A DNA stretch of 64,000 nt from Clostridia bacterium (GCA_017479865.1 JAFVBS010000012.1:960-64959), one strand, 5' to 3'; shown: positions 1,052-16,718, numbered from the stretch's first letter. The notes: generated from the letters alone by a model not told the origin. Program-made: numbers and translations.

Positions 1052-2116
1052 ATGTTTCAAAAATTAGATGACGTAGAAAAAAGATATGAGGAAATTACGC
1101 AAAAAATTGCTGACCCAGAAATTATTAGCAAGCAGGATGAGTGGAAAACGCTCATGAAGGAACATGCAGAAATTGAACCAGTTGTATTAAAATATAGAGA
1201 ATATAAAACAGTAAAACAAGCGATAGAAGATGCTAAAGAAATGCTAGGAGATCCAGAGTTAAAAGAATTGGCAGAAGTAGAAATTGAAGAAGGAAAAGAA
1301 AAGTTGCCAAAGTTAGAAGAAGAAATTAAAATTTTATTAATTCCAAAGGACCCTAACGACGACAAAAACGTAATTTGCGAAATTAGAGGAGGAGCAGGAG
1401 GAGAAGAGGCAGCATTATTTGCAGGAACGCTTTTTAGAATGTATTCTATGTATGCTGAAAAAAAACATTGGAAGTTAGAAGTATTAAATGAAAACGAAAC
1501 TGGCTTAGGAGGCTATAAAGAAATTTCTTTTATGATTACAGGAAAAGGAGCTTATAGTAGACTTAAATTTGAAAGTGGAGTTCACAGAGTACAAAGAGTG
1601 CCAGATACAGAAGCAAGTGGTAGAATTCATACCTCAACAGCGACTGTTGTAGTTCTCCCTGAAGTAGAAGATGTAGAAATTGAAATTAATCCAGCAGATA
1701 TCAAAATGGAAGTATTTAGAGCCTCAGGAGCGGGAGGACAACATATTAATAAAACTTCTTCTGCTGTTCGTTTAATTCACATTCCAACAGGGATGGTAGC
1801 GGAATGTCAAACAGAGAGGTCACAATTCCAAAATAGAGATTATGCCATGAGATTACTTCGCTCTCGTTTATATGAACAAGAAAAGGAAAAGCAAGATGCA
1901 GAAGTTGCCAATGCAAGGAAGAGCCAAGTTGGTAGTGGCGATAGAAGCGAAAAAATAAGAACCTATAATTATCCACAAGGACGTATTACAGACCATAGAA
2001 TAGGATTATCTATCTATCAAATGGACAATTTCTTAAATGGTGACTTAGACGAAATGATTGATAGTTTAATTACTGCAGATACCGCAGAAAAGCTAAAAGG
2101 AAATGAAGAAGAATAA
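1052..2116 (+). CDS. prfA: peptide chain release factor 1
   Basis: GGQ motif ([11 protein letters not shown]) and a P-x-T type recognition loop ([14 protein letters not shown]). GGAG at 1041..1044 favours the ATG at 1052 over the ORF-track ATG at 1046. Confidence 0.93.
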
Positions 2117-2179
2117 ACTCATAAATCCCACTTCTTACAAATACAATGTACTAACATTGATTTGTAAGGAGTTTTTATT

Positions 2180-2630
2180 TTGGAAGAAATATTAAAAACC
2201 ACATTAATTGGATTATTCTTTGGAACTTTTGGAACAACCATCGGTGGAATAATCGGAATTACATTTAAAAATCCATCAAAAAAATTTTTAAGCTTTATTT
2301 TATCCTTTGCTTCAGGACTCATGATTGCCATTGTTTGTTTTGATTTAATTCCAGAAGCATTTGGACTTTCGGGCCTACCGACCTCATTTTTAGGAATGAT
2401 ATTTGGTATTGTTACCATGATTATATGCGAAATGCTAGTAGATAAAAAGTTTAGTAATCATAGCAAAATTGCAAGCAATTCTTTACTAAAAACGGGGGTC
2501 ATTGTCAGTATTGGCTTGGCACTCCATAACTTTCCAGAAGGATTAGCCATTGGCTCTGGTTTTGGAGCTTCCATCAAATTAGGCATTTCCCTAGCCATTG
2601 CCATTTGCTTACATGATATACCAGAAGGAA
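2180..2630 (+). pseudogene. ZIP-family (ZupT-like) metal transporter, 5' part, interrupted by the island
   Basis: Multi-TM protein with LHNFPEGLAIG and CLHDIPEG motifs. After PEG the reading frame runs into island DNA and stops 6 codons later. The remainder of the protein is at 16429..16718. Confidence 0.85.
2621..2630. repeat. left copy of the 10 bp direct repeat CCAGAAGGAA (attL core)
   Basis: Identical 10-mer at 16419..16428. Both copies encode the PEG of the split transporter. Confidence 0.8.
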
Positions 2631-2681
2631 GACTCCAAAGTAGACAGTAAAAATAAAAAAACACAATACTTCGAAAAAATA

Positions 2682-2697
2682 AATTTGAATCCATGAT
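2682..2697 (+). repeat. AATTTGAATCCATGAT motif, copy 1 (about 50 bp inside attL)
   Basis: The same 16-mer recurs at 14687..14702. A 13 bp inverted copy is at 14743..14755. Confidence 0.7.
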
Positions 2698-2784
2698 TTA
2701 TTTTAAAATATTTTTGAAATTCATAGATTTTTAAAAGAGAAAATGATATAATAATAGTACAAATTTATGATGGAGGTAATCAAT

Positions 2785-3027
2785 ATGTCTATAGAAAAAC
2801 AAAAATTATATAATGAAATTGAAACATTGCCAGAAGAACTTGCCAATCAAGTAATTAATTTTATTGAATATTTAAAATTATCATATATAGATACCGAAGC
2901 TCCAGACACAGTAACAATAAAAAGTAAAAAAGATTTAAAAGAAAAGCTACAAAAAGGACTAGATGATATAAAAGCAAATAAAGTATATTCGCTAGATGAA
3001 ACTTTTGCTAAAATAGATAATATATAA
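2785..3027 (+). CDS. type II antitoxin (small acidic protein upstream of the RelE/ParE toxin)
   Basis: GGAGG at 2772..2776, 8 nt before the ATG at 2785. An 80 aa protein lying 20 nt upstream of the toxin gene. Confidence 0.6.
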   Translation: MSIEKQKLYNEIETLPEELANQVINFIEYLKLSYIDTEAPDTVTIKSKKDLKEKLQKGLDDIKANKVYSLDETFAKIDNI

Positions 3028-3046
3028 AAAACAGGGAGTAAATGTA

Positions 3047-3370
3047 GTGAAAAAATATATAGTGGAAATTTCGGAAACTGCTGAAGAGGATTTAGAAAAT
3101 ATTATTTCATATCTTAGAGATAATTTAGCAGGAGATATTATAGCAGATAAATACAAAATTTTATTTAAACAAAAATTAAAAGATTTAGAAGAAATAGCAG
3201 GAAGTATGCCTATTTTAGATGAAGGCTTGACAGGACATGAAAACATTAGAAAAATTAATGTAAGGAATTATATAGTATTTTATATAGTTGATGAAGAAAA
3301 TTCTAAAGCAGTAGTATTAAGAATAGGACATGCCTTTATGGATTGGGAAAAATATTTAAAAGATGAATAA
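3047..3370 (+). CDS. RelE/ParE-family type II toxin
   Basis: 107 aa. The sequence resembles RelE/ParE-family toxins (IVEISETAEEDLENI.. N-terminus, ..YIVFYIVDEENSKAVVLRIGH core). GTG start preceded by GGGAG. Confidence 0.7.
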   Translation: MKKYIVEISETAEEDLENIISYLRDNLAGDIIADKYKILFKQKLKDLEEIAGSMPILDEGLTGHENIRKINVRNYIVFYIVDEENSKAVVLRIGHAFMDWEKYLKDE

Positions 3371-3379
3371 TTAAAAAAT

Positions 3380-3416
3380 GGATAATTAACAATTAATTAA
3401 TTATCTGTTTTTTGTT
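3380..3416 (+). terminator. intrinsic terminator after the toxin gene
   Basis: GATAATTAA..TTAATTATC stem followed by TGTTTTTTG. Confidence 0.6.
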
Positions 3417-3840
3417 TTTGGCTAGAAAATAAAAATTGATAAATATACAAGTGAGAAAAAATGAAATTAATACTCGAGCGGACAGAAAAATAGCTTCAAA
3501 CGGACATGTTAAAGTATCCGAATGAGGCTTTTTTTGAAGTTTTTTTAGCGGACATTTTGACACTATGAAAAATACCTAAAAATAAAGTAAAACCGCAAAT
3601 TTAGGTGTGTCGAGTTTAGCAGGATATGACACAGGTAAAGGAAAAAAGTGGCATTAGAGGGTGTGTTGTATCTGGATAGCCAAAAAGTAAATTGAGGGGA
3701 TATAAAAAAGCGGTGCGATTATTTATTGATGTAGGTAAGTGGTTATTGAAAAGCATTTGGTTTTATGTTATAGTTTAGGTAGTAAGATAGTAATGGGAGA
3801 ATTATCATATGGCTGAGTTAAGGATATTGATAATAAAGTA

Positions 3841-3872
3841 AAAGCAAGTTAATACGTAATTTGCTTTTTTCT
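3841..3872 (+). terminator. hairpin plus T-run ahead of the sugar cluster
   Basis: AAAGCAA..TTGCTTT stem followed by TTTTT. Confidence 0.45.
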
Positions 3873-3894
3873 TTTTGATGTTTTAAGCAATTTA

Positions 3895-3923
3895 TTGACT
3901 TTTTACTGAGGAAATGGTAAAAT
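3895..3923 (+). promoter_or_regulatory. sigma-A type promoter of the sugar cluster
   Basis: TTGACT (3895..3900), 17 nt spacer, TAAAAT (3918..3923). It lies inside the ORF-track start region, so the real start is the ATG at 3974. Confidence 0.55.
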
Positions 3924-3973
3924 TATGTAAATTTAAGAATGAATTTAGAAGTAAAACTGAAAAGAGGAAAGGT

Positions 3974-5059
3974 ATGGAAAATAATAATCAGTATGCTTTG
4001 ATTTTAGCTGGCGGAAGCGGAACAAGATTATGGCCAATTAGTACAGATGATAAGCCAAAACAATTTCTAAATTTATATAAAGATGACATCATGATTAATG
4101 AAACAATCAAAAGAATAGAACCATTATTTAAACCAGAGAACATATTTATTATTATTAATCAAAATCAAAAAGAAATTGCTAATCGATATATTGATTTTCG
4201 TATTCCAAGGAAAAATATTATTTCTGAGCCAAAAGCTAAAAATACAGCTATGTGTATTTTTTATGCTACCTTAAAAATAATTGCGGCTAGAGGAAATGGA
4301 ATTATGACAGTTTTATCTTCAGATCATTATATAAAGAAAGAAAAAAACTTAAGAGATAATATAGTAGAAGGAATTCAAATTGCTATTAAAGGAGAAAATT
4401 TAATAACAATAGGAATCAAACCAACTTATCCTGCAACAGGATTTGGATATATTAAGTATACTTATAATGAAGAGAATCAATGGAATGAAGTATTAGAATT
4501 TAAAGAAAAGCCTAATTATGAGAAAGCAGTAGAATATCTAAAGAATGGAAATTACTATTGGAATAGTGGAATGTTTATTTGGCAAACTGAAACCATATTA
4601 AATCATTATCAAAAATATTTACCAGAAGTATATCAATATAAGCAAGAGATTGAAAGTAGTATTCATCATTCAAAAGAAAATGAAATGATAGAAAAAATAT
4701 ATGATGAAGTCATATCTATTTCAATTGATAAAGGACTATTAGAGAAGTCAAGTAATATTAAAATGATAAAAAGTGAATTTGAATGGATGGATATTGGAAG
4801 CATCAATGATTTTTTTGATATCAGATCCAAAAATCAAAATGATAATGTAGAGATAGGGAATATCATTACACAAGATACAGAAAGAACTAATATTTATAAT
4901 GAGAATAAAGAATGTTTAATAGCTACAATAGGAATAGAAAGTTTAAATATTATTAGCTGTAATGGAGTGATATTAGTTGCTAATAAAGAAAAAATGAATG
5001 AATTACCTAATCTAATAGAAAAGATTAAAAAGGATGTAAAATATAAAAAGTATTTATAG
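3974..5059 (+). CDS. sugar-1-phosphate nucleotidylyltransferase (mannose-1-phosphate guanylyltransferase family, no C-terminal isomerase domain)
   Basis: LILAGGSGTRLWPIS nucleotide-binding signature. RBS AGAGGAAAGG before the ATG at 3974. Confidence 0.75.
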   Translation: MENNNQYALILAGGSGTRLWPISTDDKPKQFLNLYKDDIMINETIKRIEPLFKPENIFIIINQNQKEIANRYIDFRIPRKNIISEPKAKNTAMCIFYATLKIIAARGNGIMTVLSSDHYIKKEKNLRDNIVEGIQIAIKGENLITIGIKPTYPATGFGYIKYTYNEENQWNEVLEFKEKPNYEKAVEYLKNGNYYWNSGMFIWQTETILNHYQKYLPEVYQYKQEIESSIHHSKENEMIEKIYDEVISISIDKGLLEKSSNIKMIKSEFEWMDIGSINDFFDIRSKNQNDNVEIGNIITQDTERTNIYNENKECLIATIGIESLNIISCNGVILVANKEKMNELPNLIEKIKKDVKYKKYL

Positions 5060-5068
5060 GGGTATTAT

Positions 5069-6082
5069 ATGAAATCAGACTATTTTTACGATATTGCTGA
5101 AAAAGTAAGTATTCACGACTATATAGAGAAATTAGATGGAAGAGTATTATTTATTTATTCTCCTACTTCCTTAGAAAAAATAGATATTAGACATTCAAAA
5201 ATTCTTTTTAAAAATTGGCATCATATTTCAAAAAATGTAGAAAAAATTGATGAGTATATCAAAACACTAAATAATATTGAAGAGATAATTACTTTTGGAG
5301 GAGGTAGCACAATTGATATTGGAAAATACATATCTTCTCAATTAAATATCAAATATACTTGTATTCCTTCAATGCTATCAACAAATGCTTATGCAACGGA
5401 CAAGGCTGCTTTAATCAAAAATGAAAAGAAAGTAACAATAGTAGCAAAAATGCCTGACAAGATTATTATTGATGATGAAGTCTTAAAGCTTTCAAAAGAT
5501 GAAAATTTATACGGATTAGCAGATGTCTTATCAATTCATACAGCATTGTATGACTGGAAAATAGCAAATGAAGACATAAAGGAAACAATAGATAAAGAAA
5601 TATATGAGAAAGCAAAACACTTACTAAATGAGGTGTTAGAATTTATTCAGGATAACTCTTTAGAGCACATAGTTGAGAGCAATATGAAGTTATTTCAATT
5701 TATTGGAGAAGCGGGATATATTACCAATTTATATGGAACAGGAAGACCAGAAAGTGGGTCAGAACATATTATGGCAAAAGAGATTGAAAGAAGAATAGAT
5801 ATGCCACATGGAATATCTGTATCAATAGGGATTTTATCAATGGTATTATTACAAAATAGGAACATAACACGTATATTAGGAGCAATTCAAAAAATGAAAA
5901 TTTTGGAAAGCAGTTCAAAATTTGGATTATCCGCTGAGATAATTGAAAAAAGTTTTTTAAACTTAACACCCAGAATTGACCGCTATACAATAGTAAACCG
6001 ACATACAGAAAATATGGAACACAGAAAAAAAGTAATAGAGAGTTTTTTGAAAATAGTAGATAAGCAAATAATAACTAAATAA
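5069..6082 (+). CDS. iron-containing alcohol dehydrogenase superfamily, glycerol-1-phosphate dehydrogenase-like
   Basis: FGGGSTIDIGKY, IPSMLSTNAYATDKAAL, GLADVLSIHTALYDW and GRPESGSEH motifs in the order seen in G1PDH/AraM-type enzymes. Confidence 0.5.
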   Translation: MKSDYFYDIAEKVSIHDYIEKLDGRVLFIYSPTSLEKIDIRHSKILFKNWHHISKNVEKIDEYIKTLNNIEEIITFGGGSTIDIGKYISSQLNIKYTCIPSMLSTNAYATDKAALIKNEKKVTIVAKMPDKIIIDDEVLKLSKDENLYGLADVLSIHTALYDWKIANEDIKETIDKEIYEKAKHLLNEVLEFIQDNSLEHIVESNMKLFQFIGEAGYITNLYGTGRPESGSEHIMAKEIERRIDMPHGISVSIGILSMVLLQNRNITRILGAIQKMKILESSSKFGLSAEIIEKSFLNLTPRIDRYTIVNRHTENMEHRKKVIESFLKIVDKQIITK

Positions 6083-6106
6083 AATTTCTTATAGAATGGA
6101 GAAAAA

Positions 6107-7393
6107 ATGAGTAAAAGTAATAAAGTAGGTATTATTGGATTGGGATATGTTGGTGCACCATTAGCATATTTGGCAGCAATTACTGGATATACAGTTATTG
6201 GGATTGATAATAACGAAGAGGCAATAGAAAATATGAATAGAAAAATAAATGCCCCTAATGAACTTCATGATAAACTTGATAAAGTGGAACTTATTGCTTC
6301 TAATGATTATTCGTTATTGAGAGATACAGATATTATTATTATTTGTGTTCCAACACCTACTATTAATAATAAACCAGACACTTCAATATTAAAAAATGTT
6401 ATTAGTGGAATAAGTAAATTCATCAAAAGAGGTTGTCTAATTATAGTAGAAAGTACAGTTGCACCAGGAATGACAAGAGAATATGTAGAACAATATCTGC
6501 TAAAAAAAGAAAAATTAATTATAAATAAAGATTACTACTTAGCTTATTGTCCTGAAAGAATAGATCCAGGGAACAAAAAGTTTTGGGTAGGAAATATTAA
6601 TAGAGTTTGTGGAGCATCATCAGATTATGCATTAAATAAAGCATGTGAATTTTACCAATCTATGATAAAGGCGAGAGTAATTCCTATGGAATCTATTGAA
6701 GAGGCAGAACTTGTGAAGGTTTGGGAGAATTCTATGAGAAATGTCAGTATTGCTCAAGCAAATTTATTGGCAATGATGTGTGATAAATATCATTTTTCTG
6801 TGGAACAAGTTCTAGAAGGTCTTAATAGTAAGGTTGAACAATTTGGACTAACATTAGCATATCCAGGGATTGGACCTGGAGGACATTGTATTCCAGAAGA
6901 TATTCACTATTTAATTAATACTTCAGAAAAAGATATTGATATTAATATGAATTTGCTCAAAGAGGCTGTTAAGATTAATGAGGAAATGCCAAGATATGCA
7001 TATGATAAAATAAAATCAATTATCCAAAAAAGTGGTGAAAAGGTAGAGAAAATGAAATTTTTAATGTTAGGAATTAGTTATAAACCTAATTCGGCTGACA
7101 TCCGAAAATCACAAGCTTTAGTTTTATACAATTTAATAAAAAATGACAATCAGAAAATTGATTTATATGATCCTATTGCAAAATATGATATAAAGGATAT
7201 TAGCTCAAAAAAAATATTTGAAAAGAAAATAAGTGAAGCAGATATTATTATTGTCGGCTGTGCACATGATATATTTTTACAACTTGATTATACTCATTAT
7301 AAAAATGTGAAATATATTCTAGACTGTTGGAATAAACTTGATGAATCAAAAATAGAAAAAGCAGGAATTCATTATATTGGAGTAGGAAAATGA
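6107..7393 (+). CDS. nucleotide-sugar 6-dehydrogenase (UDP-glucose/GDP-mannose dehydrogenase family)
   Basis: N-terminal Rossmann motif IGLGYVGAPLA and catalytic region GPGGHCIPED. Confidence 0.85.
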   Translation: MSKSNKVGIIGLGYVGAPLAYLAAITGYTVIGIDNNEEAIENMNRKINAPNELHDKLDKVELIASNDYSLLRDTDIIIICVPTPTINNKPDTSILKNVISGISKFIKRGCLIIVESTVAPGMTREYVEQYLLKKEKLIINKDYYLAYCPERIDPGNKKFWVGNINRVCGASSDYALNKACEFYQSMIKARVIPMESIEEAELVKVWENSMRNVSIAQANLLAMMCDKYHFSVEQVLEGLNSKVEQFGLTLAYPGIGPGGHCIPEDIHYLINTSEKDIDINMNLLKEAVKINEEMPRYAYDKIKSIIQKSGEKVEKMKFLMLGISYKPNSADIRKSQALVLYNLIKNDNQKIDLYDPIAKYDIKDISSKKIFEKKISEADIIIVGCAHDIFLQLDYTHYKNVKYILDCWNKLDESKIEKAGIHYIGVGK

Positions 7394-8263
7394 AAGATTT
7401 TATTGTATCGCCTTTTTATACCATTAGAGAAAATAAGTTATTATATTTAAATCAGTATGAAATATGTAAATTACCATCAGAGAAAACAATTAAAAATTTA
7501 ATTCTAAGAGATGAAGGGGTATTACTTAATAAAATAGATAAAGACAACAAAGAAAAATCCGTCTTAGTATTAGAACCACATCCAGATGATTTTTCTTTAT
7601 CAGCTTTAGGGTACACACTATATCAACACAATGCAATAGTTCTTAATGTATTTTCAAAAATGATGCTAGAGAGTTTTACTTGGAAAAATAATATTAATAT
7701 TAGTAAAGAACAGTATGAAAAATTACGTTTAGAAGAATCAAAATTGGCTATTGAAGTGATACTTAAGCGGTAAGTTTATTTCCTTAAAGGAAGAATCAAC
7801 GAGAATTACAAAGAAAAATTCTAGTATCATACAAAATAAAATTATTAAAAATATCAATAAAATAATCAATGAGAATTCTAAAATAGATACAATATTAATA
7901 CCTATGGGAATTGGCAAGCACCCAGATCATATCATTGTTTATGATACAGTTATGAATTATCAAATGAACAAGCAATTGAAAGTTATTTTATACCCAGAAT
8001 ACCCATATGCAAGATGTAAAAAAGCATATATTGAAAGAATGGAAGAGATAAATAAAAACTATACGTTAAAACCAATTATAGTTGATATAAAAGAAAAAAT
8101 AGATATTCTAGCAGATGCAAGTATAGCATATCGCTCACAATTTGATGATATTAATAGAAATCAAATGTTGGCAATTATACGTGAAGATGCCAGAGCAATT
8201 GCACAAGAATATTTGCAGGATAATGAATCATTAATATATTATGAAATCGGAGATAAAAAATGA
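7390..8263 (+). CDS. PIG-L/LmbE-family deacetylase, continuous only with a +1 shift at the in-frame CGG at 7768
   Basis: LEPHPDDFSL (HPDD) lies in frame 1 and GKHPDHIIVYD in frame 2. Skipping C7768 gives ..EVILKGKFISLKEES.. with no stop. Confidence 0.75.
7768..7770 (+). other. in-frame CGG at a +1 frame junction (AAG CGG TAA -> AAG c GGT AAG)
   Basis: The zero frame stops at the next codon (TAA 7771..7773). The +1 frame is open from 7760 to 8263. Confidence 0.85.
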
Positions 8264-9354
8264 AAATTAGTTTTTTGGATGATGAACCAGAAATATTTCC
8301 TCTTCAATATGGTGGAAAAGCAAGAACAATTGTAAATCTTGCGAAAGAATTTATTAAATTACCAGAAGTCGATAAAGTGACGATACTTAGTAGATCGATT
8401 GTATGTGATAAAGCAGAATTTGATCAAGATGGAATTCATTATGTTGTTTTAAATGACAATAATATAATGAGTAGAATTGCTTTTGAAATAAATGATGCTG
8501 ACATTTTAAATATTCATTGCTGTTCATTTACGTTTCCAGTGATTTTAGGAAAAGCTAAAAAATTTTACTTTTTGCATGATGTATTACTAGCTACAGCAGA
8601 AAAAGGGAGTCATTTAGATAAAGCATTAGGAGGACAGTTTGATGCAATAATTGCTCCTTCTGAGTTTGCAAAATCTGTTTATGAAGAAAATAAAAAAATC
8701 ATCAATGGCAATACCAAATGTTATGTGATTCCAAGACATATTAATACAAAAACATTTTGCGGTATAAGTAAAGAAGAAATCATGCAAGATGAAAAGGCAC
8801 CAGCATTAGTAAAAGATATTATCAACAAATACGAATATATACTATTTTTCCCTAGTCGACCAATTGAAGAAAAAGGGGGAAAATATTTAAAGGAACTATC
8901 AACAGAATTAGGAAAAAAATTTAACAATTACTGTATTGTTGGACCATTTGGTAATGATGATGTACCATCAAAGTCTTGCATCAATACTGATTGGATTAAA
9001 AGTAATAAATTGAAATATTATTATTCAATAGCAGATGTTACACTAAATTTTTCAAGTTTGCCAGAAAGTTTTTCACAAATTTGTCTTGAGTCAGCGTACT
9101 GTGGAACACCTGTAGTATCTTTTAAATCTGGTAATATTCCGACACTTAGCAAGCAAATAGATTCCATCATTTTAGTTGATAAAACAATAGACTCAATTTT
9201 AAATGGAATTAATAACGCTATAGTGATGAAAAATGATTTAGAGCGAATTGAACAAACAAAAGAAAAAATAATTGAAAATTTCGGATCCAAAAAAATTATA
9301 AATGAATATCTTAGCTTATATCAAAAATATATGGAGGGATTAGATGAAGAGTGA
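8260..9354 (+). CDS. glycosyltransferase (GT-B fold, GT4-like)
   Basis: Size, position and C-terminal ..ESFSQICLESAYCGTPVV.. (E-x7-E-like) motif. Confidence 0.7.
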   Translation: MKISFLDDEPEIFPLQYGGKARTIVNLAKEFIKLPEVDKVTILSRSIVCDKAEFDQDGIHYVVLNDNNIMSRIAFEINDADILNIHCCSFTFPVILGKAKKFYFLHDVLLATAEKGSHLDKALGGQFDAIIAPSEFAKSVYEENKKIINGNTKCYVIPRHINTKTFCGISKEEIMQDEKAPALVKDIINKYEYILFFPSRPIEEKGGKYLKELSTELGKKFNNYCIVGPFGNDDVPSKSCINTDWIKSNKLKYYYSIADVTLNFSSLPESFSQICLESAYCGTPVVSFKSGNIPTLSKQIDSIILVDKTIDSILNGINNAIVMKNDLERIEQTKEKIIENFGSKKIINEYLSLYQKYMEGLDEE

Positions 9355-11284
9355 AGATGTAAAAGTAAGAACAATCTATCAAGACCAAAGGATAGCGGAG
9401 GAATTTTGCAACTTCCGTTGTGATTATTGTGAGGGATTTTGCCCATCAGGATATTCTATTGCTACAGATAACGAAGGAAATTTAAAAGTACCTGCTGAAT
9501 GGCATGATAAAATTCATTCATTACCAGACAAAGTAAAAGTATTCTTCGAGCAAGGAAGAACAATGAACCAATTTTATCAGTTAGCAAATGAAGTAATGAA
9601 GGAAACGAAAAAAGAGGTTGCTACAGACATCTTAAAAATTTCTGGTGGAGAAGTTACTACAAATGGGCAATTACTTGAATTTGTCAAATCAATTCACCAA
9701 CAATATTCTATGATTCAAATTTTAACAAATGGGCTTAACTTAACAAATGATGATTTAGACCAATACAAACAAATGGGAAATGTCACTTTTCAAGTATCAA
9801 TTGATGGAGCAACTGCTGAATCTAATTATGCAAAATCACATAATGCACTTGTTACTAAAAGAGTTTTAGATAATCTAGATTATATGATAAAAAAAGGCTT
9901 AGGAGTAGAAATTAACTGCGTACTTACAAAGTATAATACAGATAAGTTCTTAGAATTTTTGGAAAGATTTAAAGATGCAAATGATTTTATGGTAGTCCCT
10001 CGTCCAGTAAGAGGCAAGCCGAGAGAAGTAATAGATTTTTCAACAAAGCAAGTTCTAATTTTTGAACAACAAGTTAAGGAAAATTTTGAAAGGTACAAAA
10101 AAATATTACCACCAAAAGAATACATAGACAGGTTAATTGAAATGATGAAAACTGGAAAACGAAATTCCTACTGTTATATTCCATTTTTTGTACTAAGCAT
10201 TGATGGATATGGAAATTTCGAACAATGCCCAATTGGGTTAATGCCAAGGAAAAGACAAAATATTATAGAGGGAACCGTTGAGAAAAATGAAATACTGATT
10301 CATTCAAATTATCAAGTAATTAATAACTATCAGCTATGTGAGTACTGCATTGTTCAGTATGAAATGTTAAACTTATATGTAGAAGGAAAAATATCAAAAG
10401 AAGAATTGAGAAGAATGCCATCATTAAACTCAGATATGACAACTATGCATATTGATGAAATAAAGCAGGATATTATAATGAAAGATTTAAAAAAACAGTT
10501 GGAAGGAAAATATGAGATTAAAATAAATCAAATAGAAAAGAATGAAGAATCAACTGATGGAAATGTATTTATTATTACTTCGAATTCTAATAAAAAATAT
10601 GTTATAAAAGTATACCAAACTAAAGAGCATACAAAAGAAATGATCAAAGTACATTCTCTTTTAATGTCAGCCGGTCTGAATGTTCCTAAAATTATTTCTT
10701 CAAAAGAAAATGAAGAATATGGAACATTAATTAATGGAAATTATTTTATAGTTTATTCATTTATTAAAGGAAAGCAAGTGGATTATGATCAAAAAACAAG
10801 TAAGTTAGATAGTAATATTGTAAAAGCAATTGCAAAAACCTTAAGAGGAATGCACGATATAACAAACGGAGAAAATAAATGTCATTTACCTGGTATTCCT
10901 TTTCAAAATGAGAACAATATTCATCGCTACTCAGTATTGCATTTTGATATGACAAGAAAGAATATTTTTATAACAGAAAATAATGATGAAAAAATTAGTT
11001 TTATTGATTTTGACGATGCAAAATATGGACCATCTGTATGTGATGTAGCTATTGCACTTGCTAATTTGTTTCTTTCAAAAACACGTGGTACTGATATGGA
11101 TGGAATTAACCAATTTATAGAGGAATATTATGCTGGTGATAAAGAACTTAAAAGTGAAGAACTACCATTAATTAAGACTTTAGCATTGCAATGGGTTGAC
11201 TATATTTTAGAAGGTAATGATTTTGACACATCTACAACAGAAAGTTTTGTTGTTAGACGTAAATTAATTGAAAAAAATTTATAA
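9344..11284 (+). CDS. fusion protein: radical SAM (SPASM/twitch-like) domain plus C-terminal APH/choline-kinase-type phosphotransferase domain
   Basis: CNFRCDYCEG (CxxxCxxC), SGGEVT and SIDGATAESNY, with further Cys pairs (YCYIPFF..CPIG, CEYC). The C-terminal half has HFDMTRKNIFI and FIDFDDAKYGPSVCDVA kinase catalytic motifs. Confidence 0.7.
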   Translation: MKSEDVKVRTIYQDQRIAEEFCNFRCDYCEGFCPSGYSIATDNEGNLKVPAEWHDKIHSLPDKVKVFFEQGRTMNQFYQLANEVMKETKKEVATDILKISGGEVTTNGQLLEFVKSIHQQYSMIQILTNGLNLTNDDLDQYKQMGNVTFQVSIDGATAESNYAKSHNALVTKRVLDNLDYMIKKGLGVEINCVLTKYNTDKFLEFLERFKDANDFMVVPRPVRGKPREVIDFSTKQVLIFEQQVKENFERYKKILPPKEYIDRLIEMMKTGKRNSYCYIPFFVLSIDGYGNFEQCPIGLMPRKRQNIIEGTVEKNEILIHSNYQVINNYQLCEYCIVQYEMLNLYVEGKISKEELRRMPSLNSDMTTMHIDEIKQDIIMKDLKKQLEGKYEIKINQIEKNEESTDGNVFIITSNSNKKYVIKVYQTKEHTKEMIKVHSLLMSAGLNVPKIISSKENEEYGTLINGNYFIVYSFIKGKQVDYDQKTSKLDSNIVKAIAKTLRGMHDITNGENKCHLPGIPFQNENNIHRYSVLHFDMTRKNIFITENNDEKISFIDFDDAKYGPSVCDVAIALANLFLSKTRGTDMDGINQFIEEYYAGDKELKSEELPLIKTLALQWVDYILEGNDFDTSTTESFVVRRKLIEKNL

Positions 11285-11308
11285 TGAATTCAATATTAGG
11301 AGGAGAAC

Positions 11309-12451
11309 ATGAAAATAGCAATTGTTAATACGTGGGCAATATCGAATAAAGCAATTGGAGGAACAGAAAGGTTTGTAATAGATTTAGCAAAATCTTTTGC
11401 TAGTGATAATTATGAAGTGGATGTATTTATGTTTTCTGGGAAAAGCTATTCAGAAGATAATGTGAATTATATCAATATTAATTTATTTAACATGGAAGGG
11501 GAAGCAGACGAGTATATTGTTCAAAACTATTTTGGAAATTTTGAAACAGATGAATCTTATATTAACTTAGCAAAAAAGTTAGAAGATAGGATAGATGTTA
11601 CGAAATATGACTTTATTCAACTAAACTCATTATTGTTTTTAGAGGCTTGGAAAAATAAAAAGAGAATATTTACAATTCATACCAATCCTTTTGAATATGA
11701 ACTTGCTTGGGGAGAAAAATCATATCAAAAAATGCTAGAATTAATGAGAAAGTATCAAAATGATAAAAGTACAATATTTGTTGCTCCATCTGAATTTTAT
11801 GCTAGTGAATATACTCACTTAACAGGTTGCAATATTAACTTTATTCCACATGCCATCGATATTAAACGAATACAAACGAATAAAAGTGTAGAAGACATTG
11901 TTAAGCAATATGATTTGAGTCAGAACAAATTAAAAATTATTGTTCCTAGTAGACTAGAACCAATTCAAAAGCAACCGATGATGTTATTAGAGGCGTGCAG
12001 TTTATTAAATAAAGAAGAAAAAGAAAAAATTCAAATTATTTATACTGGATTGGATAAGCAATATGAAAAGTTTGTAGATGAATTAAAAGAAAAGGCACAA
12101 GAAAATGATATTGATATAAAAATTATTCGATTTGATGAGATGGGAGAGGTGTACAAAATTGGAGATATGACTGTTTTACCAAGTAAATCAGAAAGCTTTG
12201 GATATTCTGCTTTAGAATCATTATCATTAGGAATATTTACTATATTGAATGATATACCAACATTTCATGAAATTACGCAAGAAAATGACTATTGTTATAT
12301 TTTTAAGAATAATGTGATAGAATTAAAAGAAAAAATAGAAGAACTAATAAAAAGTCAAAACAAATTAACTAGAAAAATTCCAAAAATAGAATGGCAAGAA
12401 AGATATGATTTAAAACAATTCGAAAGCTCATATGTTAATTTAATAAAATAA
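11309..12451 (+). CDS. glycosyltransferase family 4
   Basis: GGTERFVIDLAK N-terminal motif and PSKSESFGYSALESLSLG (E-x7-E). Confidence 0.8.
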   Translation: MKIAIVNTWAISNKAIGGTERFVIDLAKSFASDNYEVDVFMFSGKSYSEDNVNYININLFNMEGEADEYIVQNYFGNFETDESYINLAKKLEDRIDVTKYDFIQLNSLLFLEAWKNKKRIFTIHTNPFEYELAWGEKSYQKMLELMRKYQNDKSTIFVAPSEFYASEYTHLTGCNINFIPHAIDIKRIQTNKSVEDIVKQYDLSQNKLKIIVPSRLEPIQKQPMMLLEACSLLNKEEKEKIQIIYTGLDKQYEKFVDELKEKAQENDIDIKIIRFDEMGEVYKIGDMTVLPSKSESFGYSALESLSLGIFTILNDIPTFHEITQENDYCYIFKNNVIELKEKIEELIKSQNKLTRKIPKIEWQERYDLKQFESSYVNLIK

Positions 12452-12497
12452 TGATTACAGTGAAAATTACAATAGAATTACAAGGGAGTATTAAGTC

Positions 12498-13106
12498 TTG
12501 AAAAAAGCAATTATTTTTGATTTAGATGGTACATTATGGAATACAACAAAAGAATGTACATTAGTTTGGAGTAAAGTGGCTAAAAATTACAACTTAAAAG
12601 TAAATAGAAAACAAATAAAAGAAATAATGGGGTTAACAAAAGAAGAAATTATTAAGTATTTTTTTGAAGATAACTCAGAGCTTGGAAATAAATTTATCAC
12701 AGAATGTCAAAATAAAGAGAATGAGTATTTGAAACAATATGGAGGAACGATTTATCAAAATACAATCAAAACGATAAAAGAATTAAGCAAGAATTATGAA
12801 TTGTTTATTGTAAGTAATTGTCAATCTGGTTATATAGAAGCATTTTTAAATTATTATGATTTAGGACATTACTTTAAGGACTATGAATGTTATGGTAATA
12901 CAGGAAAAAGCAAGGAATATAATATAAATATTCTTATGGAAAGAAATAATATTAAAAATGTAGTTTATGTAGGAGATACAGAAAAGGATTATCTAGCATC
13001 AACTTGTAATAATATTCGATTTATATGGGCAAAATATGGCTTTGGAATGTGTAATTACTGTAATGACTATGTTAATGATATTTTTGAATTGCTCCGTAAA
13101 TTGTAA
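12498..13106 (+). CDS. HAD-superfamily phosphatase
   Basis: Motif I IIFDLDGTLW and late motif VYVGDTEKD. Confidence 0.8.
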   Translation: MKKAIIFDLDGTLWNTTKECTLVWSKVAKNYNLKVNRKQIKEIMGLTKEEIIKYFFEDNSELGNKFITECQNKENEYLKQYGGTIYQNTIKTIKELSKNYELFIVSNCQSGYIEAFLNYYDLGHYFKDYECYGNTGKSKEYNINILMERNNIKNVVYVGDTEKDYLASTCNNIRFIWAKYGFGMCNYCNDYVNDIFELLRKL

Positions 13107-13225
13107 ATTATGAATTTTAATTGTTATACAAATTTTAAAGGTAGATAAATCATCTACCTTTTATAGATGTTATAATTGAAAACATATAGCTAAAGTATGG
13201 AATTCAAAAGTTAGTTAACCCAATA

Positions 13226-13558
13226 TTAGTTTGACAACATTGATTCAATTAAAGCTAATACATTTCTCTTATCCTTTTTATTAAGTTTAGAAAAATTGGA
13301 ATTAAAATTATTAATATCGCCATAGCTATCTAGATCTTTGATAAATTCATGAAGAATATCATTTGGAGTTACTTTAAATGCTTCACAAAATTTTAGCATT
13401 GTTTTGATAGTACCCATATATCTACCTGTTTCTACTTGACTAATATATTTTGTGTCAAACCCAGTCATTTGAGCAACTTGCTCTTGTGTAAGGTTATTTT
13501 TAATTCTTAAATTACGTAATGATTGACCATAAATAATATTATCATTATCTTTTTCCAT
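13226..13558 (-). CDS. XRE-family helix-turn-helix transcriptional regulator
   Basis: LRNLRIKNNLTQEQVAQMTGFDTKYISQVETG HTH. GGTGA lies 5 nt before the ATG at 13558. The ORF-track start at 13570 is also possible. Confidence 0.8.
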   Translation of the reverse strand: MEKDNDNIIYGQSLRNLRIKNNLTQEQVAQMTGFDTKYISQVETGRYMGTIKTMLKFCEAFKVTPNDILHEFIKDLDSYGDINNFNSNFSKLNKKDKRNVLALIESMLSN

Positions 13559-13716
13559 TTTTATCACCATATATATAGTATAAAAAGTAGGATTAAAAAT
13601 TAACCTAGTAAATAAAGGAAAAAATCTTGAAAAACCTATTTACAATTTTCTATAAAAAATATATAATATTTCCATAGAAAAAAATCAAATTTGTGCTAGA
13701 AAAGGAACTATATTAA

Positions 13717-14392
13717 TTGATATTAATAGAAAAGAAAGGTATAAAATATACTATGGAGGAAAGAATAAGAAAAATAAAGGAAGATGCAAAGAAAATATTA
13801 AAATCCTATTCTATAGATGTATTATCTACAGACTATAGGTCTCTGGAATACTTAAAAAATATAGAAAATAGAATCATAAAAGAAGATGAAATAGAGATTA
13901 TTGAAAGAATAATAAATAATACAGAAATGTATTATCATTCACAAAGTAAAATGATATTAGCAAAAGATGATTATAGTTATCTTAAAGAAATAGCTGCAAA
14001 TTTAAGAAATCAAAGTGTTAGATTAGAGGATGGAGTTACTTTTGGAGATCCAATATTTAAAATTTCTAAAGATAGAAACGAGGAATTTATTACAAGAGAA
14101 GGTGCAAAAAAATTCAGAGAAGTAAATTCTACAACTATTAAATATGAAGAATTGAATGAAAAAGATAGTCAAGAAAGAAGAAAAAACAATGTGAATGTGA
14201 TACCTGGTTACCAGGGTAAAGCCGATATCATTCGGCATGACTTTACGATTTCGTAAAGGTAAAGTAAGTAGCAATTTTAAAAGAGCTACTTTTAGTAAAG
14301 CAAAGTTAAGGGGAGGATTGTGCCTAAAATTAAATAACAAGAAAAGACCATTGGTGATTAGTGGAGAAAATGATTATTTAGCTAAAATGTAA
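13717..14392 (+). CDS. hypothetical protein. A +1 shift at the in-frame CGG at 14233 extends it by 52 codons to 14392.
   Basis: The zero frame ends at 14256. Skipping C14233 opens GGC ATG ACT .. with no stop until TAA at 14390..14392, directly ahead of an intrinsic terminator. The start is uncertain (13717 TTG or 13753 ATG). Confidence 0.55.
14233..14235 (+). other. in-frame CGG at a candidate +1 frame junction (ATT CGG CAT -> ATT c GGC ATG)
   Basis: See the CDS at 13717..14392. A 52-codon open +1 continuation is unlikely by chance in DNA this AT-rich. Confidence 0.6.
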
Positions 14393-14412
14393 ATTGAATA
14401 AATCAAAAGTGA

Positions 14413-14450
14413 AAAAGCGATTTTTAGTATAAAACGCTTTTTTATTTTTT
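14413..14450 (+). terminator. intrinsic terminator
   Basis: AAAAGCG..CGCTTTT stem followed by TTTATTTTTT. Confidence 0.65.
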
Positions 14451-14556
14451 GCTCAAAAAGAGAAAATCACAAATCTGTGCAATGTATGAATAAAAAAGAA
14501 TGGAAAGAATATTTATGGAGAAAGAGGGTGTAAGCAGCAGGAGGGAGGAATGAACT

Positions 14557-14682
14557 ATGCAAGAAGAGTTTAAAATTAATGTATTTTTTAAAAGTGATGG
14601 TGAAAGTGTTGAAAAAATAATTACACATTATTTAATTAATTTATTAAATAGCAAAATAGATAATTTTAAATATAGTATATAA
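14557..14682 (+). CDS. small ORF (41 aa) upstream of the recombinase
   Basis: GGAGGGAGG at 14541..14549 precedes the ATG at 14557 (MQEEFKINVFFKSDGESVEKIITHYLINLLNSKIDNFKYSI). No family was recognised. Confidence 0.35.
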   Translation: MQEEFKINVFFKSDGESVEKIITHYLINLLNSKIDNFKYSI

Positions 14683-14686
14683 AAAT

Positions 14687-14702
14687 AATTTGAATCCATG
14701 AT
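14687..14702 (+). repeat. AATTTGAATCCATGAT motif, copy 2
   Basis: Identical to 2682..2697. It forms a 13 bp inverted repeat with 14743..14755 around the recombinase promoter. Confidence 0.7.
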
Positions 14703-14707
14703 AAATA

Positions 14708-14736
14708 TTGTAAGTTTTAATTAGAAACAGTATAAT
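14708..14736 (+). promoter_or_regulatory. candidate recombinase promoter enclosed by the inverted repeat
   Basis: TTGTAA (14708..14713), 17 nt spacer, TATAAT (14731..14736). Confidence 0.5.
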
Positions 14737-14742
14737 AGTGTT

Positions 14743-14755
14743 ATGGATTCAAATT
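14743..14755 (-). repeat. inverted copy ATGGATTCAAATT of the island motif
   Basis: Reverse complement of AATTTGAATCCAT. Confidence 0.7.
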
Positions 14756-14782
14756 ATTTTTTCAAGTATGAAAGGAGGAAAA

Positions 14783-16346
14783 ATGCTTGAAAAAATAAAC
14801 CAAGTAGCATATAAAATAGCAATTTATATAAGACTATCAAAAGAGGACAAGGATAGGGGATACGATGAAAGCGAAAGTATTACAAACCAAAAGGCTTTGC
14901 TACTAGAATATGTACAAAAATTGGGCTCAGAATATGAGCTAGTAGATATTTATATTGATCCAGGATATACAGGCACAAATTTTAATAGACCGGATTTTAA
15001 ACGAATGATAAATGATATAGAGAGTGGTAAGGTAAATATGGTTATCACGAAAGATTTATCTCGTTTAGGTCGTGATTATATTGAAACTGGTGAATATGTT
15101 GAAAAATGGTTTCCTGAAAAGAATGTAAGGTATGTTTCTGTAACAGATGGAATTGATACTTTTGCAACCAATAATGGGAATAATGATATAGCGCCTTTTA
15201 AATCTATATTAAATGATATGTATTCAAAAGATTTATCAAAAAAAATAAAAACAGCACTACATACAATGCAACAACAGGGAAAATGGGTCGGAGGAAAAAC
15301 TGCTTTAGGGTACACAAAAGACAAAAATGATAAAAATAAATTGGTTATTTGCGAGCCAGAAGCAAAAATTGTTAGAACCATTTTTAATATGGCAACTACT
15401 GGAAATCAAATAGGAGAAATTAGGGACTTCTTAAATCAAAACCATATTCCTACAGCAAGTCAGATTCGATATCAAAAAGATACATTTTGGGAAAATAAAG
15501 CTATCAAAAATATTTTAACGAATGAAGTGTATTGCCGGTACTACCATACAAAATAAACGAAGTAGAATCAGCTATAAAAACAGAAAACTAAGACCTAACC
15601 CAAAAGAGCAATGGAGCGTAGTAGAAAATACTCATGAACCAATTATTGAGAAAAAAGCATTTGAAATGGTGCAGAAAATAATAATTGTTCAAAAACATGG
15701 CAGAAATGAGAAAAAGCATCATTTTTTGCTAGATGGATTATTAATCTGCTATGAATGTAAGCACAAAATAGGTGTACGAGCAAGAAAAGACGGAAGGTTT
15801 GATATGGTATGCAATAATTACAGAAGAAATTCAAAATTAGGCTTATGCACTTCACATGGTTTTAATTATGAGAATTTAGAGAAAATGATATTGGAGTATA
15901 TCAAGAAACTATTTTTAGAAATTGACCACAAAAAAATTGAATTAGATATTCAAAATAGTAAAACTAAATATGATTATGGAAAAATACTACAAAAATTAGA
16001 AGCGGAAATTAAATTAATTCATGATAACATGGATCAAATGTATGTCGATAAATTAAACAAAAAAATTAGTGAAGAAATGTATCAAAGGCTATTTAAAAAA
16101 CTACAAAATGAAGAAAAGCAAAAAGAAAAAGAATACATAGCATTAAAAAGCAAGCAAGAAAACTATCAGCATGATGATACAGAAGAAATTAAAAGAATTG
16201 TAAAAGATTTTTTGAACCTAGAAAAGCCAAGCGCAGAAATGCTACGAGTGATTATTAATCGCATTGAAATACACCAAGACAAACAAGTCGATATCATTTT
16301 TAATTTTAAAAAATTAAATAATATTAATTATACAAGTTTACAATAA
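14783..16346 (+). CDS. large serine recombinase, full length only with a +1 shift at the in-frame CGG at 15536
   Basis: Resolvase-type N-terminus (IAIYIRLSKEDKDRGYDESESITNQK), then a recombinase domain, zinc ribbon (CYECKHKIG..CNNYRRNSKLGLCTSH) and coiled coil in the second ORF. Skipping C15536 gives LTNEVYCGTTIQNKRSRISYKNRKL, a motif I recall as typical of this family. Confidence 0.85.
15536..15538 (+). other. in-frame CGG at a +1 frame junction (TGC CGG TAC -> TGC c GGT ACT)
   Basis: The zero frame stops at 15554..15556. The +1 frame carries the rest of the recombinase. Confidence 0.85.
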
Positions 16347-16418
16347 AATGCGACTAATTTAATATTCAATATTATATTAGTCGGAAATATTTGTTACATA
16401 TGTCACATTTGGAATCAA

Positions 16419-16428
16419 CCAGAAGGAA
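16419..16428. repeat. right copy of the 10 bp direct repeat CCAGAAGGAA (attR core)
   Basis: Identical to 2621..2630. It is preceded by TTTGGAATC (16408..16416), the partner of GACTCCAAA (2631..2639). Confidence 0.8.
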
Positions 16429-16718
16429 TTTCCATGGCAGTGCCTATGAAGAATGGAGGAATGAAGGCACAAAAAGTTATTTTTTATGTTGTATTATCCG
16501 GTATTACTACAGGAATTGGTGCTTTCTTTGGAGCATTTTTAGGAGGAATTTCACAAAACGTTATCGCAATGTGCCTATCCTTTGCTGCAGGAGCGATGAT
16601 TTATATTGTTTCAGGAGAACTCATTCCAGAATCTAATCAATTATACCACGGAAAAACAACTGCAGTTGGTAATATTTTAGGCCTTCTTATTGGCATTTTT
16701 GCTATGTCCATTGCATAA
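16429..16718 (+). pseudogene. ZIP-family metal transporter, 3' part
   Basis: ..ISMAVPMKNGGMKAQK..SFAAGAMIYIVSGELIPES.., in frame with 2180..2630 once the island is removed. Confidence 0.85.

Follow-up and report, generated by a model that had tools for sequence, protein, structure and literature searches.

We analysed a stretch of DNA of 64,000 nucleotides (nt) from a Clostridia bacterium (GCA_017479865.1, JAFVBS010000012.1:960-64959), here called the window, in which the gene of a ZIP metal transporter is divided by a 13.8 kb segment that carries a large serine recombinase (LSR) gene at its right end. Positions are counted from the first letter of the window, and features lie on the + strand unless stated otherwise. 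The 5' half of the ZIP gene (2180..2630) holds codons 1-150 and ends in CLHDIPEG; its open reading frame (ORF) reads on for six codons into the segment and stops at 2650. The 3' half (16429..16718) begins with ISMAVPMKNGG and runs through the stop codon. The segment between them, 2631..16428, has a G+C content of 27.0%, against 32.4% in the remainder of the 64 kb window, and is very probably an LSR-borne integrative island that entered the ZIP gene by recombination of attP with attB, as judged from its ends and from its relatives in other genomes.

The divided ZIP gene and the ends of the island

Do the two fragments derive from a single gene? Joined, 2180..2630 and 16429..16718 give 741 nt in frame, encoding 246 amino acids (aa) and a stop codon, and the product matches the Pfam Zip family with E = 4.9e-30. 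More than 5,000 proteins match this product, the best of them with lengths of 243-258 aa and identities of 76-89%, and the best full-length homologues align without gaps through the junction HDIPEG/ISMAVP, where HDIPEGISMAVPMKNGG is invariant. The site is uninterrupted in two contigs of related organisms, L001 and L002 (81-82% nt identity), where it takes the form CCAGAAGGAAT[AT]TC[CA]ATGGCAG; in the window the empty ZIP site, attB, is predicted to read ..CATGATATACCAGAAGGAATTTCCATGG... An earlier reading of the window, made without database searches (the sequence-only reading), had the ZIP gene split at 2630/16429, with a clean 246-codon gene after removal of the island, and had proposed a comparison with uninterrupted relatives. 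The joined frame, the gap-free alignments and the two contigs bear this out, and all the coordinates of that reading are correct. Since the break falls within the transmembrane helix on which the metal-binding residues lie, neither fragment is likely to function by itself, and the insertion has probably inactivated the transporter.

Each end of the island carries a copy of the 11 bp core ACCAGAAGGAA, at 2620..2630 in attL and at 16418..16428 in attR. The window contains three copies of this 11-mer, where 0.01 are expected; the third (44423) is unrelated. The shared junction repeat noticed earlier is therefore present at both ends, with a length of 11 bp and not 10. Inward of the core copies lie the two arms of attP. 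The P' arm, 2631..2648 (GACTCCAAAGTAGACAGT), has one mismatch to the consensus GATTCCAAAGTAGACAGT of the related islands described below. The inner half of the P arm, 16400..16416 (ATGTCACATTTGGAATC), fits the family consensus CTGTCTACTTTAGAATC, and its outer half departs from it. The attP predicted for the window reads ..ATGTCACATTTGGAATCAACCAGAAGGAAGACTCCAAAGTAGACAG..; over 50 bp, 28 of the 50 positions of the reconstructed site are self-complementary, compared with 12.3 +/- 4.1 in shuffled sequences (p ~4e-4).

The sequence-only reading had described a palindromic attP with a 9 bp imperfect repeat and a 12 bp centre. This repeat exists as described (TTTGGAATC at 16408-16416 versus GACTCCAAA at 2631-2639), but the description was too modest: because the arms of the family are 18-19 bp long and the symmetry extends outward, the repeat is only the inner part of a longer site. 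The family consensus built from aligned ends, AACTGTCTAyTTTrrAATCAACCAGAAGGwAGATTCCAAAGTAGACAGT, is self-complementary at 36 of 50 positions and has the layout AACTGTCTAyTTTrrAATC - AACCAGAAGGwA - GATTCCAAAGTAGACAGT, with inverted arms of 18-19 bp and a centre of 12 bp. The conserved attB spans about 27 bp. A typical LSR attP measures about 50 bp, and the site found here is an imperfect palindrome of that length, with a non-palindromic dinucleotide at its centre, adjoining the LSR gene. That gene had been placed directly inside attR, and its stop codon indeed lies 72 nt from the attR core.

A separate observation concerns the 3' end of the neighbouring pcrA gene, where CCGGAAGGAGATGACTACAAAGTAGACAT (19634-19664; EPEGDDYKVDI) is similar to the attL core and P' arm (CCAGAAGGAAGACTCCAAAGTAGACAG) when shifted by 3 nt. 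The pcrA gene of locus L009 shows the same similarity, which could be chance or a relic.

Related islands at the same codon

Is the insertion peculiar to this genome? Context look-ups pointed to relatives of the LSR in other genomes, a genome scan gave 578 among species-representative genomes, and 80 loci were fetched. Recombinases homologous to that of the window (65-78% identity) occupy exactly the same ZIP codon in at least 35 related genomes, with different cargo. In most of the fetched loci the 3' half of the ZIP gene follows the LSR gene directly and begins exactly at I-S/A-M, and the 5' half ends exactly in HD[IV]PEG wherever the flank is long enough. Every locus shows a single end of the attL type and a single one of the attR type, and the orientation is the same throughout. 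The islands of the relatives range from about 3.8 to 11 kb, so that the 13.8 kb of the window are the largest seen. Their cargo includes a LysR-radical SAM/CYTH/NUDIX/kinase set, AbiEii with sigma factors, an AAA ATPase/DEAD helicase/ABC protein set, and RhuM. The hosts are uncultured gut Clostridia, relatives of Clostridium sp. CAG:273, CAG:567 and CAG:571, whose metagenome-assembled chromosomes measure about 1.5 Mb, and the order prfA, ZIP, low-molecular-weight (LMW) phosphatase, pcrA is the same in them as in the window.

Pairs of genomes in which the host DNA next to the island agrees at only 69-78% have LSR genes with 90-98% nt identity; for L015 and L045 the values are 97.7% for the LSR and 72.0% for the flank. 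LSR identity so far above that of the host flanks indicates that the recombination module moved between species recently. Other LSRs of the same clade lie in the ATPase gene of an ABC transporter (L019, L024, L031, L033, L036, L041, L042, L044, L050, L054, L059 and L060), at ..THDISEAISMSDR.. (HDISEAISM), where the site DNA CATGATATATCAGAAGCAATAAGTATG nearly equals the ZIP site CATGATATACCAGAAGGAATTTCCATG. More distant members are inserted at the first PEG motif of a divergent ZIP paralogue. As insertions in the ABC ATPase and in the ZIP paralogue occur where the motif recurs, the clade recognises a DNA word and not a gene.

The islands in the ABC ATPase gene also locate the crossover. There, attB TCAGAAGC and attP CCAGAAGG yield attL TCAGAAGG and attR CCAGAAGC, and these hybrids place the exchange inside CAGAAG, which corresponds to 2622-2627 in the attL core of the window; in L026, attL has GGT and attR has GGC. 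The pattern is that of a conservative attP/attB exchange within a short shared core that leaves hybrid attL and attR sites. The dinucleotide GA (2624-2625) is the symmetry centre of attP and lies inside the mapped interval; it is probably the crossover dinucleotide and the position of cleavage itself. Occupation of the same codon in dozens of genomes, conserved arms and a mapped crossover together support the earlier proposal of an integrative serine-recombinase island in a ZIP gene. Very probably, then, 2631..16428 is a non-phage, non-conjugative integrative island, which the LSR inserted by attP x attB recombination into DNA encoding the second HDxPEG metal-binding motif of ZIP.

How does this family relate to known systems? 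The best solved structures matching the LSR are the N-terminal (catalytic) domain of TnpX (1.2e-26) and SPbeta SprA (2e-23, residues 12-496), and the nearest relative in annotated plasmids is TndX, with about 33% identity over 94% of the length. TndX target sites always have GA at their centre (PMC4430133), as does the target here. In both cases, moreover, the target DNA codes for a conserved motif of a protein, which for TndX is the Fic domain. Unlike Tn5397 and Tn4451, however, the window island lacks transfer genes and is neither a conjugative transposon nor one for chloramphenicol resistance, and its LSR clade, unlike TndX and TnpX, is specific for one DNA motif and is not multi-targeting. 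The C-terminal domain DUF4368, typical of the multi-targeting LSR clade (PMC10083194), scores 19.6 bits in the window LSR (PF14287, E = 0.0011), below the cut-off of 25.

Insertion at one position of a conserved gene follows a pattern seen before. Durrant et al. 2022 report many divergent LSRs that integrate at a single conserved gene position and disrupt the gene, with Mg-chelatase/ComM and prolyl isomerase among the examples (PMC10083194). The window family shares this general pattern with their clusters and differs from them in consisting of small cargo islands in uncultured, small-genome gut Clostridia. A ZIP target is not mentioned in the text or the available supplements of that study (PMC10083194), and we found no LSR targeting ZIP or zupT in the literature. 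The element is of a known general type; the large family at the ZIP site was previously unremarked.

The ZIP islands also resemble staphylococcal cassette chromosomes (SCC). SCCmec and ECC (PMC6222049) are LSR-driven cassettes that vary greatly in cargo, carry no transfer genes themselves, occupy one fixed chromosomal site and end in inverted repeats, and the ZIP islands have each of these traits. They do not belong to the SCC group, which is defined by Ccr recombinases and insertion at rlmH: the CcrB and CcrC models give 90 and 99 bits with the window LSR, against cut-offs of 900. Insertion of SCC at the 3' end of rlmH spares that gene, whereas the window island cuts its target mid-gene.

Could the island instead be what remains of a prophage, or of an integrative conjugative or mobilisable element, after loss of genes? 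LSRs are common integrases of phages and of integrative conjugative elements, the island encodes an XRE/RstR-like repressor and a toxin-antitoxin pair, and weak relatives of the LSR occur in phage and plasmid records. The phage matches, however, are at most 41% identical and weaker than those named above, the attR pattern is absent from IMG/VR, and genes for capsid, tail, terminase, replication, relaxase or type IV secretion are lacking here and in the sampled relatives, whose islands shrink to about 4 kb. We regard such an origin as extremely improbable. A prophage assignment was also rejected on gene content: PHROGs gave only regulator, toxin and glycosyltransferase matches, Pfam agrees, and structural, packaging and lysis genes are missing. 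Nor is the island of the tRNA-targeting kind, since scans of the region with Rfam and for tRNA genes gave no matches.

The integrative islands at ZIP document a widespread cargo-exchange hot spot in poorly studied, small-genome gut Clostridia, in which one LSR clade delivers interchangeable cassettes to the ZIP site and to its look-alike in an ABC ATPase gene, many of these cassettes being apparently related to conflict or defence. Their att sites (attP of ~50 bp, attB of ~27 bp, central GA) are defined well enough for the enzymes to be tried as integration tools.

The recombinase, its control region and the question of excision

The LSR gene of the window (14783..16346) is a pseudogene. It encodes Resolvase, Recombinase and Zn-ribbon domains (PF00239, 4e-23; PF07508, 3.7e-10 and 7.2e-6; PF13408, 1.1e-9) and a coiled-coil tail, and the stretch R17-L18-S19 (YIRLSKED), which includes the catalytic serine, is invariant in the LSR alignment. 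A +1 frameshift at ~15527-15556 divides the gene into two ORFs, 14783..15556 and 15522..16346 (257 + 274 aa). Removal of one base near 15533 yields an LSR of 520 aa, whose alignment with homologues of 515-523 aa (68-78% identity) covers the full length. The island therefore has no intact recombinase gene of the kind expected in an active element.

Is the frameshift real? If it and a second one, in the PIG-L deacetylase gene of the cargo, were sequencing or assembly errors or were bypassed, the island could be fully functional and currently mobile. Both halves of ZIP and most cargo genes are intact, and the left arm and core agree with the family consensus apart from the single arm mismatch mentioned above. 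A separately assembled Logan contig of 17,133 nt, L093, bears on the matter; it is 99.97% identical to the window over 13 kb, with four single-nucleotide polymorphisms (SNPs) and no gaps. It carries both frameshifts, in LSR and in PIG-L, although the two assemblies may come from related samples of one study and could then share an error. Neither frameshift lies within a homopolymer run (GTGTATTGCCGG; ACTTAAGCGGTAAG), and the LSR homologues are single ORFs in 120 of 120 cases among the matches listed. A functional island is on this evidence unlikely. With its LSR frameshifted, this copy is probably unable to move by itself, and the frameshift of PIG-L in both assemblies, besides that of the LSR, suggests that the island as a whole is decaying. 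The ZIP gene of this genome is a pseudogene through an old, decaying insertion. L093 begins about 157 nt inside attL (window ~2787), a contig break that may reflect branching of the assembly graph.

Some observations weigh against the account of an integrative, now decaying island. If the window and L093 stem from the same sample, the frameshifts could be shared assembly or consensus errors. The closest relative of the LSR is only 78% identical, which makes the window LSR an outlier in its family. The departure of the outer half of the P arm from the consensus could be decay or lineage variation. No relaxase, oriT, packaging or other transfer function was identified in the island. Finally, mobility of this copy is deduced only from its relatives, because neither an empty site nor a circular junction was seen.

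The sequence-only reading had called for a search for such junctions. An exact 36-mer across the predicted attB had no match in JGI metagenome contigs, in a scan without a positive control, and an intact ZIP protein of at least 90% identity was absent from a collection of 5.8 billion protein clusters. For the attP junction, a window-like 31-mer and a family-generic 45-nt pattern gave no match in IMG/VR and the JGI metagenomes; the only positive control of these metagenome scans was one recombinase (P0152) of JGI source. The attR control pattern likewise had no match in IMG/VR, which is thus uninformative for junctions. Exact-protein look-ups of RF1 and PcrA for other strains found nothing on record, and that of the LMW phosphatase found only two contigs, both with the island.

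Upstream of the LSR gene lies a conserved small gene of 41 aa (14557..14682; MQEEFKINVFFKSDGESVEKIITHYLINLL..). An ORF of 35-45 aa with the pattern M.E.FKINvYFDEkGEElE.lI..L...L precedes nearly every LSR of this clade, at a distance of 70-270 nt in about 70 related loci. Differences among these ORFs fall on codon positions 1, 2 and 3 in proportions of 37%, 16% and 47%, which argues that the ORF is a real gene. No known family in Pfam, NCBIfam or PHROGs matches its product, which is a candidate accessory or directionality factor.

Between the small gene and the LSR gene stands the recombinase control region (14686..14769), with a promoter-like TTGTAA-17-TATAAT (14708-14736) bracketed by inverted sites of the AATTTGAATCCATGA type. 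An inverted copy of the LSR promoter and 5' leader lies near the left end of the island (2666..2705; ATACTTCGAAAAAATAAATTTGAATCCATGA..), its partner being 14731-14769, and a third leader-type copy at 14686-14705 puts the LSR promoter between inverted sites. In the window, and also in 17 of 29 distinct loci (z > 3), such an inverted leader copy occupies the first 20-90 nt of the island at its left end. The leader and left-end sequence varies by lineage, being entirely different in L046, yet both copies co-vary. They could be operator sites, could report the integrated or circular state by RNA pairing, or could be a duplicated outward promoter. The control of LSRs in such islands can be approached from two concrete leads, the small partner gene and the co-varying end/leader repeat.

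Does the island serve as a reversible genetic switch? Precise excision would restore the ZIP frame, as the sequence-only reading had seen; it went on to suggest a switch for metal uptake, comparable to the elements that intervene in sporulation genes. On such a view the LSR, perhaps with the small protein, would excise the island in response to a cue, such as metal limitation or sporulation in the mother cell, and so rebuild ZIP. The elements skin, SPbeta and gin intervene in sigK, spsM and gerE, which must be rebuilt. The likeness to skin/SpoIVCA, SPbeta/SprA-SprB, gin/GirC-GirX and yin extends to a terminal LSR, an adjoining small gene, a gene split in frame and spore-forming hosts. Here the hosts look spore-forming, with Coat_F and SspH genes near the site in relatives, and the ZIP halves are still intact in most carriers. 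The small gene beside the LSR, conserved in ~70 loci and evolving like a coding sequence, recalls the sprB-sprA and girX-girC arrangements (PMC5499854 and PMC5595907). TndX and TnpX, the nearest characterised relatives, catalyse both integration and excision (PMC4430133). LSRs of their type need no separate directionality factor.

Several findings nevertheless speak against a switch. The LSR is frameshifted in two assemblies, as is the PIG-L gene of the cargo, and neither an empty site nor an attP junction was found in the scans described, which had no positive control for either. Broken ZIP halves occur in carriers, in 7 of ~31 distinct C-terminal and 2 of 19 N-terminal halves, about a quarter of the carriers being affected, a pattern not to be expected of a gene that is routinely rebuilt. 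The interrupted gene is ZIP, and in other islands an ABC ATPase or a ZIP paralogue, not a mother-cell sporulation gene; ZIP is not known to act in sporulation. That the same clade splits the ABC ATPase gene and a distant ZIP paralogue points to opportunism of target sequence and not to regulation of one gene. The switch is therefore very unlikely, and with it the analogy to sporulation elements, although conditional excision is possible in relatives with intact enzymes.

A more speculative view, to which we give little credence, takes the ZIP islands for conditional intervening elements and, separately, their cargo for a mobile aminoglycoside-like or glycoside conflict pathway. In its first part, the LSR and the 35-45 aa protein may excise the island on cue, with the transporter rebuilt, and the left-end leader copy, which co-varies with its partner, would serve the element as a sensor of its integrated or circular state, for instance through a transcript crossing attL or attP that pairs with the 5' untranslated region of the LSR.

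Cargo of the island and neighbouring genes

At the left end of the integrative island lies a type II toxin-antitoxin pair, an antitoxin (2767-3027) with weak VapB/RelB-like matches and a toxin of the ParE/RelE family (3047-3370). The cargo cassette proper (3914..13106) has all its genes on one strand and no recognised membrane or export genes. It consists of a ManC-like NTP-transferase (3914-5059), an Fe-ADH_2 or glycerol-1-P-dehydrogenase-like enzyme (5069-6082), an NDP-sugar dehydrogenase (6107-7393), the PIG-L/LmbE-type deacetylase pseudogene (7390-8263), a GT4 glycosyltransferase (8260-9354), a fusion of radical SAM with an APH/CotS-like kinase (9344-11284), a second GT4 glycosyltransferase (11309-12451) and a HAD phosphatase (12498-13106). 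An XRE/RstR-like helix-turn-helix regulator follows on the - strand (13226..13570), and then an ORF of 179 aa without a family match (13717..14256).

The PIG-L gene has its +1 frameshift near 7763-7772, and intact homologues (L102, L104) measure 290-295 aa. L093 shares the frameshift but lacks the stop codon found in the window at 7771-7773, owing to a SNP at 7772. With this gene frameshifted, the cargo pathway is probably damaged.

A cassette of 8-9 genes corresponding to that of the window (3914-13106) recurs in L102 (5708-13724) and L104 (4645-14188), sometimes with a NUDIX gene before the HAD gene, and contains no transporter or polymerase genes. It stands with a different serine recombinase of 559 aa in L102, and between tyrosine integrases in L104 and L105, in an abundant species. 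Recurrence beside other recombinases and integrases argues that the cassette is a mobile module in its own right. In L102 it is flanked by an N-terminal FeoB fragment (2003-3217) and a FeoB 'Gate' fragment (14598-15092), which suggests that a second metal-transporter gene, feoB, was split there by an LSR island, although the junction is not clean.

What might the cassette make? As a guess, it could yield a small compound of the glycoside or aminocyclitol-like kind, or else serve glycosylation in the cytoplasm. One remote possibility is a pathway for a compound used in phage or microbial conflict, formed by the sugar-phosphate dehydrogenase-like enzyme, the two GT4 glycosyltransferases, PIG-L, the radical-SAM/kinase and HAD proteins. 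The second GT4 protein scores just below the threshold of PF20706, 'GT4-conflict'. A pVip defence assignment was rejected, the PADLOC match (2.7e-14) being at the radical-SAM level only and explicable by generic radical-SAM similarity.

Farther along, at 30942-51626, the window holds four giant tandem ORFs of 1,660-1,730 aa each, probably repeated surface proteins, which are unrelated to the island; one of them contains the third copy of the 11-mer (44423).

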